DNA from: Ostreococcus lucimarinus
Lineage: Eukaryota
Assembly: GCA_000092065.1 (NCBI GenBank)
Contig: CP000601.1
Strand: one strand, 5' to 3'
Length of the DNA: 64,000 bases
The notes under the pieces were generated by a model. That model did not search any database and had not been told where the DNA came from. It saw only the letters and a program-made list of their open reading frames with translations. Positions 49,495-59,159 of the stretch are shown piece after piece. Every line of letters begins with the position of its first letter. Position 1 is the first letter of the stretch. The position numbers and the translations under genes are program-made.

Positions 49495-49603
49495 GTGCGT
49501 GCGAAGCGAACGAGGCGAGAGCGCGAGACGAAACGCGAAGGAGAAAGAAAACGCGAACCGAAGACTGACGCTCAGACGTTTCGTTTCGACGATGGTTAAA
49601 CAG
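49495..49603 (+). other. inferred 109-bp GT-AG intron (phase 0) in the DUF3007-like gene
   Basis: Donor GTGCGT at 49495; acceptor TTAAACAG| ends 49603. Splicing switches from the junk-like read-through ...VRAKRTRRERETKREGERKRE to the well-formed tail YENAVMQKRLEEMPASELEKMMDELDEK. Confidence 0.5.
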
Positions 49604-54278: not shown

Positions 54279-55556
54279 TTAATACGTAAACTCACCGTAT
54301 TCACTCTTCACCACGACTTCAGACTTGCCATCCTTGGCTTCGACTCTGCCGACGACGCGGGCGTCGATGTTAAAGCTCTGGCTAATATCGATAATCTTTT
54401 GCGCGTGTTCGGGGGAGCAGTAAAACTCGAGACGATGTCCGCAGTTGAACACTTTGTACATCTCGCTCCATTCGGTGTTGGAGCACTCCTGGATCAAGCG
54501 GAAGAGCGGGGGAATGGGGAACATGTTATCCTTGACGACGCGCAAGCCGTCGAGGAGAAAGTGTCCAACCTTGGACTGCGCGCCGCCGCTGCAGTGCACC
54601 ATGCCGTGAATATCCCTCACGTCCATGGCATCGAGCACGGCTTTCACCACGGGGGCGTACGTTCGCGTCGGACTGAGCACCAACTTGCCAACCGTCACGC
54701 CGGTTTCCGGCTCGACGTCGGTGAGCTGATACTTGCCGCTGTACACCAACGATTCGGGTACGTTCGGATCGAACGTTTCCGGATATTTTTCCGCCAAATT
54801 CTTCGCAAACACGTCGTGTCGAGCAGACGTCAATCCGTTGCTTCCCATTCCGCCGTTGTACTCGCTCTCGTACGTCGCTTGACCGAACGACGCCAAACCG
54901 ACGACGACGTCTCCGGCGCGAATGTTGTCGTTACTCACCACCGCGTCTCTTCGCATGCGCGCCGTGACCGTGGTGTCCACCACCACCGTGCGCACTAAAT
55001 CACCCAAATCCGCGGTTTCACCTCCCGTGGACTTCACCCCGACCCCACACTCGCGCAAAGTCTCCAAAACCTCCTCCGTCCCGTTGATGAGCGCGCTCAG
55101 CACCTCCCCCGGAATCAAAGCCTTATTCCTCCCGATCGTGCTCGAGACGAATATGTTATCCACGCACCCGACGCACAACAAATCATCCGTGTTCATCACG
55201 ATCGAATCCTGCGCGATTCCTCGCCACACTCCCAAATCTCCCGTCTCTCTCCAGTACGCGTACGCCAGGCTCGTCTTCGTCCCCGCGCCGTCCGCGTGCA
55301 TGCACGTGCAGTACGCCTCGTCCCCAGCGATGTCCTCCACGATCTTACAGAACGCCTTCGGGAACAATCCCTTGTCCACCTTCTTTATCGCCGCGTGCAC
55401 GTCCTCCTTGGACGCGCTCACGCCGCGCATCGCGTACCGCTCGTCCGCCGCCGCGCTCGCCCTCGCGTTCGCCCTCGCGTTCGTTCGCGTCGTCGCGCGC
55501 GCGCGCCATCGCGACGGCATCGCGCGCGCCGTCGTCGTCGTCGTCGCCGTCGCCAT
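54279..55556 (-). CDS. purM: phosphoribosylformylglycinamidine cyclo-ligase (AIR synthetase, PurM)
   Basis: PurM N-domain MHADGAGTKTSLAY, GEVLSALINGTE, GGETADLGDLVRT, C-domain VHCSGGAQSKV. N-terminal T/A/R-rich transit peptide. Confidence 0.9.
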   Translation of the reverse strand: MATATTTTTARAMPSRWRARATTRTNARANARASAAADERYAMRGVSASKEDVHAAIKKVDKGLFPKAFCKIVEDIAGDEAYCTCMHADGAGTKTSLAYAYWRETGDLGVWRGIAQDSIVMNTDDLLCVGCVDNIFVSSTIGRNKALIPGEVLSALINGTEEVLETLRECGVGVKSTGGETADLGDLVRTVVVDTTVTARMRRDAVVSNDNIRAGDVVVGLASFGQATYESEYNGGMGSNGLTSARHDVFAKNLAEKYPETFDPNVPESLVYSGKYQLTDVEPETGVTVGKLVLSPTRTYAPVVKAVLDAMDVRDIHGMVHCSGGAQSKVGHFLLDGLRVVKDNMFPIPPLFRLIQECSNTEWSEMYKVFNCGHRLEFYCSPEHAQKIIDISQSFNIDARVVGRVEAKDGKSEVVVKSEYGEFTY

Positions 55557-55695: not shown

Positions 55696-55777
55696 ACATC
55701 GACGCCTCGGAGGCGCGCGCGATCCGGTCGCCCCGCACACGCGCGCGCGCGACGACGCGACGCGACGCGATCGCGGC

Positions 55778-55799
55778 ATGACGAGGCCGATCACGACGA
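55778..55799 (+). CDS. UGD: UDP-glucose 6-dehydrogenase, inferred 22-nt 5' micro-exon (MTRPITT + 1 nt)
   Basis: ATG ACG AGG CCG ATC ACG ACG A | GTGCGTGAAG. The exon is terminated by a GTGCGT donor, and the in-frame stop TGA sits inside that donor. A phase-1 junction with TA at 56064 yields Ile, giving [21 protein letters not shown]. Confidence 0.45.
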
Positions 55800-56063
55800 G
55801 TGCGTGAAGAACGACGCGAGCGACGCGACGCGACGCGACGCGAGACGACGCGACGCGCGAGACGACGCGACGAGGGCGATCGCGACGGTCGTCGGAAAGA
55901 TGTCCGGAAACCATCCGCGAGACGCGGCGACGACCGGAGACGCGACGACGGCGACGGGAGAGCGTTGGGACGGGCGCGAAAGATGGGAGAGCGCGCGACG
56001 GTGCGAATGGAGGCGCGCGAGGACGAAGGACTGACGACGCGCGCGGTTTCGGGGACGACGCAG

Positions 56064-57457
56064 TATGTTGCATCGGCGCGGGATACGTGGGCGGGCCGAC
56101 GATGGCGATGATCGCGAAGAAGTGCCCGCAGATCTCGGTCACGGTGGTGGACATCTCGCAGCCGAGGATCGACGCGTGGAACTCGAGCGAGCTGCCGATT
56201 TATGAGCCCGGGTTGGATGAGATCGTGTTCGAGTGCAGAGGGAAGAACTTGTTCTTTTCGACGGATGTCGAAGGGGCTATTCGAGACTGCGAGATGATTT
56301 TCGTCTCCGTGAACACGCCGACGAAGAAGACTGGTTTAGGAAAAGGTAAGGCGGCGGATTTGACGTACTGGGAGTTGGCGGCGCGCACCATCGCGGCGTG
56401 CTCCGAGAGTGATAAGATCATCGTTGAGAAGTCTACGGTGCCCGTGCGAACGGCGGAGGCCATTGAAAAGGTGCTCCAGCGCAACTGCCCGCACGACGGC
56501 GTGCGATTCGACATCTTGTCCAACCCAGAATTCTTGGCCGAAGGTACGGCCATTGTAGACTTGGATGCGCCCGATCGCGTGTTGATCGGGGGTAAGATTG
56601 AAAACGCCAAAGGTCAAGCGGCGGTGGACGCGCTCGTAGGCGTGTACTCCAACTGGGTACCGAAAGAGAACATTCTGACCGCTAACTTGTGGTCTGCCGA
56701 GCTCTCAAAGCTCGCTGCGAACGCATTCTTGGCGCAGCGCATTTCTTCCATCAACGCCATGAGCGCGCTTTGTGAAGCGACCGGCGCGGATGTCCAGCAA
56801 GTTTCGCACGCCATCGGCACCGACACGCGTATCGGCTCCAAATTTTTGAACGCCTCGGTCGGTTTCGGTGGCTCGTGCTTCCAAAAGGATATCTTAAACT
56901 TGGCATACATTTGTGAGTGCCACGGCTTGCCGGAAGTGGCGGAGTACTGGCACAGCGTTGTCGGCATGAACGACTACCAAAAGAGCCGCTTCGTCAAGCG
57001 CATGATTTCCGCCATGTTCAACACGATCAGCGGCAAGAAGATTTCAATGCTCGGTTACGCTTTTAAGAAAGATACGGGTGATACTCGTGAGTCTCCGGCT
57101 ATCGACGTCGGTCACGGCCTCATCGAAGACGGTGCGAAGCTCAATATTTATGACCCGAAGGTTGCTGCGGCGCAAATCGCGTTGGACATGGGCGAGGAAG
57201 CGATGAAATCCATCACGTGCTGCAAGACTCACACTGAGTCTTTGACTGGTGCGCACGCCGTGTGCATTATGACGGAATGGGACGAGTTCAAGACGTACGA
57301 CTGGGAAGCGATCTATGGCGTCATGCAAAAGCCGGCCTTTGTGTTCGACGGCCGCCTCATCTTGGACCACCAGAAGTTGAAGGACATTGGTTTCATTGTG
57401 TATGCGCTTGGGAAGCCTTTAGATCCTTTCCTTTGCTCCGCCGAAGGCGCACCGTAA
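56064..57457 (+). CDS. UGD: UDP-glucose 6-dehydrogenase (UGDH), main exon
   Basis: (I)[21 protein letters not shown] Rossmann start has no in-frame ATG upstream (in-frame stop at 55805). FVSVNTP, catalytic [39 protein letters not shown]. 457 aa, typical for UGDH. Confidence 0.9.
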
Positions 57458-57542
57458 GTATGTACGTCGTGTGTCAGTAGTACGTCGCTAGTGATTGTAA
57501 CGTTTCTACCTAAAATCTCTAAGAATAACAAAGATTGCTGTC

Positions 57543-59159
57543 CTATTTGCGACCTATTCCGCTTATCTCAGCGTCGACCGCCGCTACGTAATCTTGGATT
57601 TGAAACTTTCTCTTGCAACCGGCGTAATTCATATACCGCACTTTACCGAACACCGCGCGCTCTTTCCATCCTTGATCGTGCACACCGGCAATGCTCCACA
57701 TACAACCAACGTAGCCGTTGGGATCGAGACCGTCTAACGCGTAAGCGTCGTTGAGTTGAATCGCCGTCTGCAGGGCCACCTCCGGCGACGGCGTCCACTC
57801 AAGAATCTTCTTCGCCCAGTACATTCTCATGAACCCATGCATTCGTCCGAGATGGTATAATTCTTTCTGAGCCGCGTTCCAAAGCTCGTCGTGCGTGTTG
57901 CCACGCTCGAGTGTTTTGTAATCGTACACGTACTCGCGAACGTCGCGGGCGTGCAAACTCAGTGAATCTTGCGCCCATTGACTCGCTCCTTGCAACGAGT
58001 CGTAATACGGATTGAAGAGACAATAGTTGTCTGATAATTCCCTTCGAACGATGAGCTCTTCCAAGTAGCTATCGATCGCCTCGTCGTCTACGATTCCCCG
58101 AAGTTGCGCAGCTTCCCACGCGGCGCGACGTGGCGACAGCTGGCCGTGATTCAAGTACGGCGAGAGGCGAGACACGGCGCGCGGCGACGTCGGCTTGTTT
58201 CGCTCCCCGTAGAGTGTCAATCGCTGTGGGAGGAAAGAGTCGACATTCGGATCGAGCAGCGCGGCTAAGGCGGCACGTTCACCCGGTTTGATCCAGTCAA
58301 CCTCTGGGACGTGCGCGCCCTTGACGCGCGCGGTGTCAATCAATGCGTCCCAATCCGTCTCACTTGGCGTCAACGCGTCCGGCGCGGCGATGAGATCATC
58401 TAACGCTTGCGGTGCGGTGAGAAAATCCCCGAGATTTCGATGAATCTTCGGCCGAATCGTTCTCGCCGCGTACTCTTGCTTATCGCTCGTCACCCACGCC
58501 GGCACGACGTTGTGCGCGTCCACTTCAATCACCGGAACCTCCACCACACGCGCCACCGCTTCCCTCGCCGCACGCCCCTCTCGCAACGGCGAAAAGTCAC
58601 ACACGACCGCACTCGCATTCAGCGTCTCGCACGTCTCCACGATTCCTCCCGCGACGTCGCTTCCCGTCGTCGTTCGCGTCGACACTCCTCGCGCTCGCAA
58701 ATCCTCATCCAATTCCTTCAACCCCTTCAGCGCGAACACCGCCCTGCGCGCGCCTCCGATGCCGCTCCCGCTCAAATCTGTCCCCACGTGCATCGCCACG
58801 ACGAGCGGGACGCGCCTTTCGTTCGCCAATTCCATCGCTCGTCCCAGCGCGTCGTTATTCGCGCACCGCCTGTCCCGGTCGCACCAGTACACCACCGGCC
58901 CCGCGCTCGCGCTCGCGCTCGCGCTCGCGCGCGCGCGCGCCGACGCATCCAACGCCGCCTTCGCCGCGTCGTTCATCCCTCGGCACCGTCGCGCGTCCAC
59001 GCCATCGCGCGCACCGCGCGTCGTCGTCGCCGTCGCTGTCGTCGTCGTCGCACCGCGCGCGCCCGTCGTCGCGCCCGCGCGCCGTCGCGCGAGCGCGCGC
59101 GCGAGTCGCGCGCGCGCGCCGTGCGCGCGCACGGCGTCTCGAATCGCGAGAGACGCCAT
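57543..59159 (-). CDS. PHR: class II CPD photolyase (deoxyribodipyrimidine photo-lyase)
   Basis: VYWCDRDRRCANNDAL, LSPYLNHGQLSPRR, RELSDNYCLFNPYYDS, HGFMRMYWAKKILEWT, KVRYMNYAGCKRKF are class II photolyase signatures. N-terminal presequence. Confidence 0.9.
   Translation of the reverse strand: MASLAIRDAVRAHGARARLARALARRRAGATTGARGATTTTATATTTRGARDGVDARRCRGMNDAAKAALDASARARASASASASAGPVVYWCDRDRRCANNDALGRAMELANERRVPLVVAMHVGTDLSGSGIGGARRAVFALKGLKELDEDLRARGVSTRTTTGSDVAGGIVETCETLNASAVVCDFSPLREGRAAREAVARVVEVPVIEVDAHNVVPAWVTSDKQEYAARTIRPKIHRNLGDFLTAPQALDDLIAAPDALTPSETDWDALIDTARVKGAHVPEVDWIKPGERAALAALLDPNVDSFLPQRLTLYGERNKPTSPRAVSRLSPYLNHGQLSPRRAAWEAAQLRGIVDDEAIDSYLEELIVRRELSDNYCLFNPYYDSLQGASQWAQDSLSLHARDVREYVYDYKTLERGNTHDELWNAAQKELYHLGRMHGFMRMYWAKKILEWTPSPEVALQTAIQLNDAYALDGLDPNGYVGCMWSIAGVHDQGWKERAVFGKVRYMNYAGCKRKFQIQDYVAAVDAEISGIGRK

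Follow-up and report, generated by a model that had tools for sequence, protein, structure and literature searches.

The UGDH locus

The window, that is the whole 64-kb stretch of Ostreococcus lucimarinus DNA analyzed, contains one copy only of the gene encoding UDP-glucose 6-dehydrogenase (UGDH). The parts of the gene and its two neighbours are located as follows:

54279-55556, minus strand: AIR-synthase-type (PurM-like) gene, upstream neighbour, divergent
55764..55777, plus strand: 5' UTR of UGDH, the minimum with transcript support (nt 31-44 of the contig L001, described below, match the window from 55764)
55778..55799, plus strand: coding part of exon 1, a 22-nt micro-exon (ATGACGAGGCCGATCACGACGA) specifying MTRPITT and opening an Ile codon with its final base, the same in L001 and in XP_001421104.1
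55800..56063, plus strand: spliceosomal intron, phase 1, 264 nt (3 x 88), missing from L001 and kept in three environmental genomic contigs
56064..57457, plus strand: exon 2, the remaining UGDH coding sequence, from the TA of the Ile codon to AEGAP and the stop TAA at 57455-57457
57543-59159, minus strand: DNA photolyase gene, downstream neighbour, convergent

The reading frame of the micro-exon is opened by the ATG at 55778-55780. Immediately after the 22 nt of ATGACGAGGCCGATCACGACGA the window reads GTGCGTGAAG, with the GT donor at 55800-55801; the AG at the other end of the intron is at 56062-56063, and is preceded by ACGC. Joining 55799 to 56064 creates an ATA (Ile) codon split in phase 1 (A+TA). 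The UGDH frame extends without interruption from 55808 up to the stop (57455-57457), the codons of the conserved N-terminus begin with the TGT at 56066, and no in-frame Met codon is found between the TGA at 55805-55807 and this TGT. An earlier note on this DNA had described an open frame devoid of ATG, the TGA at 55805..55807, a GT donor at 55800, an acceptor ending at 56063 and an intron of 264 bp, and all these coordinates were confirmed in the sequence. Exon 2 is not interrupted by any further intron in the UGDH coding sequence, as seen in both the transcript contig and the window.

The 471-aa spliced product is letter-for-letter XP_001421104.1/ABO99397.1 of O. lucimarinus CCE9901, as found by exact-sequence look-up in NCBI and UniRef, and is annotated as predicted protein or UDP-glucose 6-dehydrogenase. 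The identity includes the MTRPITT-I N-terminus, with no difference at any residue, and the annotation therefore uses the same micro-exon and intron. The gene model is hence already in the public annotation, and nothing in it is new. All three UDPG_MGDP_dh domains (NAD-binding, central and UDP-binding) were found by Pfam in the order PF03721 (9.7e-62, residues 7-190), PF00984 (1.8e-32) and PF03720 (1.7e-30). In the spliced product, residues 12-18 (GAGYVGG) form the GxGxxG dinucleotide-binding motif, and the protein is 66-70% identical to plant and chlorophyte UGDHs over 97-99% of its length. Domains, motif and level of identity are those of the UDP-glucose/GDP-mannose dehydrogenase family, and the predicted activity of the product is the oxidation of UDP-glucose to UDP-glucuronate. 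Since the Pfam NAD-binding domain begins at residue 7, the residues encoded by the micro-exon and by the split Ile codon are part of the fold.

The same 471-aa sequence carries a second NCBI accession pair (XP_001422850.1/ABP01209.1, in addition to XP_001421104.1/ABO99397.1). The observation concerns the whole gene (55778-57457), and suggests that a second, identical UGDH copy resides elsewhere in the O. lucimarinus genome.

Splice signals

EST-confirmed O. lucimarinus introns located outside chromosome 2 were analyzed by Irimia & Roy 2008 (PMC2483917). The consensus derived for the non-chromosome-2 introns is GTGCGTG at the 5' splice site and CGCAG at the 3' boundary; the branch consensus is GACTGACG, with ACTGAC found in 87% of introns, and a branch-to-AG distance of about 20-35 nt (PMC2483917). 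The signals found in the UGDH intron are:

55800..55806, plus strand: 5' splice site GTGCGTG, exact match to the consensus
56029..56036, plus strand: branch-site motif GACTGACG, with the putative branch A at 56034
56059..56063, plus strand: 3' splice site CGCAG, match to the consensus

ACTGAC and AG are spaced by 26 nt, a value inside the 20-35 nt range. Donor, branch, spacing and acceptor are all alike those of the non-chromosome-2 introns (PMC2483917), and no difference in signals was noticed. The intron differs in length, being longer, with its 264 nt, than both the median (111 nt) and the mean (168 nt) reported for all introns in the table of the same paper (PMC2483917). Outside the repeat described below, its sequence is G/A-rich and T-poor (6% T).

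The strict composite GTGCGTG...GACTGACG...10-40 nt...AG occurs three times in the window vs. 0.13 in shuffles, none of the 200 shuffles reaching three, and the arrangement is therefore not a product of chance. A loose scan of the window for GTGCGT…ACTGAC…AG showed no enrichment over shuffles (5 observed vs. 4.5). The UGDH intron is a typical, ordinary member of the strongly constrained intron class of this genome.

Two more candidate introns featuring the full consensus (GTGCGTG … GACTGACG … AG), both flanked by ORFs, were observed in the window:

49495-49603, plus strand: candidate intron, 109 nt
40509-40317, minus strand: candidate intron, 193 nt, with CGACG repeats in the sense orientation

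A spliced contig spanning the junction

L001 (Logan SRR17229554_21929), a public assembled contig of 1,825 nt, encodes the UGDH protein without interruption. Its nt 31-66 correspond to window 55764-55799, and its nt 67-1825 to window 56064-57822, the junction falling exactly at 55799/56064. This is the same join, with the same ATA codon (A+TA, Ile), that had been proposed from the raw sequence, and the resulting product is the annotated 471-aa protein. A single mismatch, synonymous, separates L001 from the window (56464 T>C). L001 is the only spliced contig found for O. lucimarinus. We infer its RNA origin from the missing intron, a cDNA being the simplest reading; L001 would then be the spliced transcript across 55799/56064 that the proposed micro-exon predicts.

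L001 might alternatively be genomic DNA, derived from a natural allele lacking the intron. The SNP at 56464 shows that L001 comes from another clone or population, and the contig runs past the UGDH stop for 365 nt, into the photolyase gene. Against this, the intron is carried by four out of the four genomic versions seen (the window and the three environmental contigs L011-L013), and its precise loss would need to have occurred exactly between splice sites that fit the consensus perfectly. We regard an intron-less allele as highly improbable; even such an allele would leave the mature coding sequence unchanged.

Read as a cDNA, L001 is not a perfect contig at its 5' end. The first 30 nt (GGTGCCAAGTCCCCTGAATTGGCAAAGAAG) have no match in the 64-kb window or in any fetched locus, and join the window at 55764. 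They could represent a leader or an additional non-coding exon located farther upstream, and the micro-exon would then be internal, not first. The join is not preceded by a canonical acceptor, window 55762-55763 being GC, not AG, and the start of the divergent AIR-synthase gene lies no more than about 220 nt upstream, leaving an additional exon very unlikely; the coding model is unaffected either way. The length of the tip equals k-1 if contigs were assembled with k = 31, which we take to be the value used, and this would suggest a chimeric tip. The three environmental genomic contigs are identical to the window upstream of the join at 55764, and nt 1-30 therefore probably represent a chimeric tip.

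At the opposite end, the segment of L001 located beyond the UGDH stop (57458-57822) covers ~280 nt of the photolyase gene, which is convergent, at its 3' end; only 85 nt separate this gene from UGDH. Either the 3' UTRs of the two genes overlap, or their transcripts were merged in an unstranded assembly.

Environmental contigs and truncated gene calls

Three genomic contigs, all unspliced, were retrieved by scanning JGI metagenome contigs for exon 1 (L011-L013, comprising MDSW01182789.1, a Tara scaffold and Ga0206682_10000812). All keep the intron, and are identical to the window in the exons and in the 180-nt upstream region. In the Tara contig (L012) the intron has 10 additional bp, and its size increases to 274 nt; the insertion is not a multiple of three, as befits a non-coding stretch free of coding constraint.

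The insertion bears on the possibility that the mRNA is not spliced at all, translation starting either at a non-AUG codon in the 55808-56065 interval, or at an internal Met (MAMIAKK, 56102). Models of this type are produced by prokaryote-style gene callers: UGDH versions of 449-451 aa, beginning with MAMIA… or MIAKK…, recur on metagenome and Logan contigs by the hundreds (the 449-aa form on 360 of them), and an ORF with a GTG start is found at 56087. However, a start at the internal Met would delete the GAGYVGG NAD-binding motif of a domain beginning at residue 7, and the 86 codons that precede the motif, on which a non-AUG start would rely, encode an Arg/Asp/Thr-rich repeat that relatives do not conserve and that varies in length by 10 bp in nature. 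L001, which is spliced, contradicts both. Non-AUG and internal-Met starts were rejected on these grounds, and the likelihood that the mRNA is translated unspliced seems negligible. Prokaryote-style callers systematically truncate UGDH at the intron, with loss of the NAD-binding motif, and 5' micro-exons of this sort are to be expected when the genes of picoeukaryotes are mined from metagenomes.

Conservation of the intron in relatives

Genomic contigs of relatives were fetched via their mis-called proteins. The AIRS-UGDH-photolyase order is kept in all three Ostreococcus-type contigs (L005, L002 and L006). The organization of the UGDH 5' end in these contigs, and in one M. commoda-like contig, is as follows:

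L005, UGDH 94% identical to that of the window: exon 1 of 22 nt, donor GTGCGTGA, intron of 228 nt, N-terminus MTREIKK-ICC
L002, UGDH 90% identical to that of the window: exon 1 of 19 nt, donor GTGCGTG, intron of 205 nt, N-terminus MVEIKK-ICC
L006, O. tauri-like: exon 1 of 19 nt, donor GTGCGTC, intron of 200 nt, N-terminus MVTVTK-ICC
L008, M. commoda-like: exon 1 of 19 nt, donor GTGAGTG, intron of 182 nt, N-terminus MVKVTT-ICC

In all four the intron is in phase 1, interrupts the same codon, and has an interior that cannot be aligned; the acceptor precedes T[A/C]-TGY-TGC. A micro-exon of 19-22 nt followed by a phase-1 intron is thus found in each ortholog, a result that corroborates the structure advanced in the earlier note. 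The position is common to Ostreococcus lineages and Micromonas, and the intron is therefore old, not a recent insertion.

The spliced N-terminus of L006, MVTVTKICC, is the start of the annotated O. tauri protein, and the MVKVTTICC predicted for L008 is one residue off the annotated M. commoda MVKITTICC. A similar short leader is found directly before ICCIGAG in Micromonas MMETSP transcripts (MNNITKICC, MVHITEICC). The N-terminus of the spliced O. lucimarinus product had been said to match the canonical UGDH start both in the Ile codon and in length. The former holds true, the latter does not, as Ile is preceded by seven residues here, by three in land plants (MVK-I), and by six in O. tauri and Micromonas (MVTVTK-I, MVKITT-I).

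The UGDH genes of O. tauri (XP_022840214.1/CEG00125.1) and M. commoda (XP_002503269.1) share with the gene in the window the phase-1 position before Ile-Cys-Cys and a very short exon with the ATG, and the neighbour genes are alike in Ostreococcus (O. tauri vs. the window). Both differ in having a micro-exon of 19, not 22 nt, one codon fewer, and introns of 200 and 182 nt, respectively, which are unrelated in the interior and have no TGA at the donor. The GTGCGTG donor of O. lucimarinus is replaced by GTGAGTG in Micromonas.

Further variation was observed outside this set of features. In a Bathycoccus-like contig (L010, 1-290), an acceptor (…aacag/GTGACGGTGGTT) precedes VTVVDLNQQ, and CT/GA-rich repeats lie ahead of it. 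The acceptor marks an intron lying ~20 codons farther downstream than that of Ostreococcus and Micromonas, in a contig too short to reach the 5' exon. In L008, an apparent extra intron in the 5' UTR (1037-1246; …cgtg/gtgagtcc … ccgcag/atttgatcgaaaagcgATG) was noticed by eye just upstream of the 19-nt micro-exon.

Repeats and stop codon inside the intron

Two features stand out in the 5' half of the intron:

55805..55807, plus strand: TGA spanning +6 to +8 of the donor, in the frame shared by the ATG and UGDH
55812..55872, plus strand: (CGACG)n microsatellite, period 5, 13 copies, score 73 (Tandem Repeats Finder)

The intron had been described as packed with repeats. A CGACG array is indeed present, but accounts for no more than about 61 nt out of 264 by Tandem Repeats Finder. 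The tract matches many other spots of the window, one of them in another consensus intron; after low-complexity filtering, no other copy of the intron was found in the 64-kb window searched. The CGACG tract is a lineage-specific microsatellite, and its presence is incidental.

Repeated families of introns, known as introner elements, are described for Micromonas pusilla (PMC4540971). The UGDH intron resembles them in being a green-algal intron with repetitive sequence, and differs from them because no other copy resides in the window after low-complexity filtering, and its position is common to Ostreococcus and Micromonas. An introner-type repeated element was rejected, as only the microsatellite part has matches elsewhere in the 64 kb, none of which survives low-complexity filtering.

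An mRNA retaining the intron would encounter a stop after MTRPITTSA, and the location of this stop within the donor had been implied to be significant. When a codon is split in phase 1, a GTGCGTG donor is read as N/GT GCG TGN, and a TGA is therefore formed whenever position +8 is A, as in this intron. The TGA is found at the donor of L005 also, and is absent in L002, L006 and L008. It is an incidental by-product of the GTGCGTG consensus when the intron is in phase 1 and position +8 is A; no evidence of selection on it was seen, and the significance attached to it is not sustained.

Organization of the UGDH 5' end

The 5' end of this nuclear UGDH gene is almost certainly made up by a 22-nt coding exon 1 and a phase-1 intron, 264 nt in length and of the canonical U2 type, which is removed. 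The junction, the identity of the protein, the splice signals and the conservation in relatives, all directly observed, concur on this. Transcription would start in the short promoter that UGDH and the AIR-synthase (PurM-like) gene, divergently oriented, have in common. The mRNA would open with a short exon, the last 22 nt of which specify MTRPITT and the first Ile base. Upon removal of the 55800-56063 intron, probably by way of the branch adenosine assigned above, the Ile base would be joined to the TA at 56064, and translation from the ATG at 55778 would yield the 471-aa enzyme, with the N-terminal Rossmann motif intact. The correct micro-exon and intron had been worked out in the earlier note from the raw sequence, an outcome of little import beyond quality control.

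Possible regulatory role of the intron

The divergent promoter, a very compact one, lies within about 100-300 nt of the intron. The latter may have been kept in an intron-poor genome for a function, either as a promoter-proximal regulatory intron, or as an off-switch for UGDH, based on intron retention and the immediate stop that follows; we deem a function of either kind unlikely.

A short inverted element (GGAA-N4-TTCC-like / CCGGAA) is found 80-100 nt after the donor in four Ostreococcus-type introns that are otherwise unalignable. The GGAA-N4-TTCC-like sequences are located at:

55896-55912 of the window (GGAAAGATGTCCGGAA)
2400-2411 of L005
2430-2441 of L002
1344-1355 of L006

The exact GGAA-N4-TTCC sequence was observed 0 times in the window vs. 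0.98 expected, the window's own copy being imperfect (GGAAAGATGTCC). The GGAA-N4-TTCC-like sequence may represent a conserved element, either intronic or promoter-proximal. The 10-bp insertion of the Tara contig sits exactly at this element.
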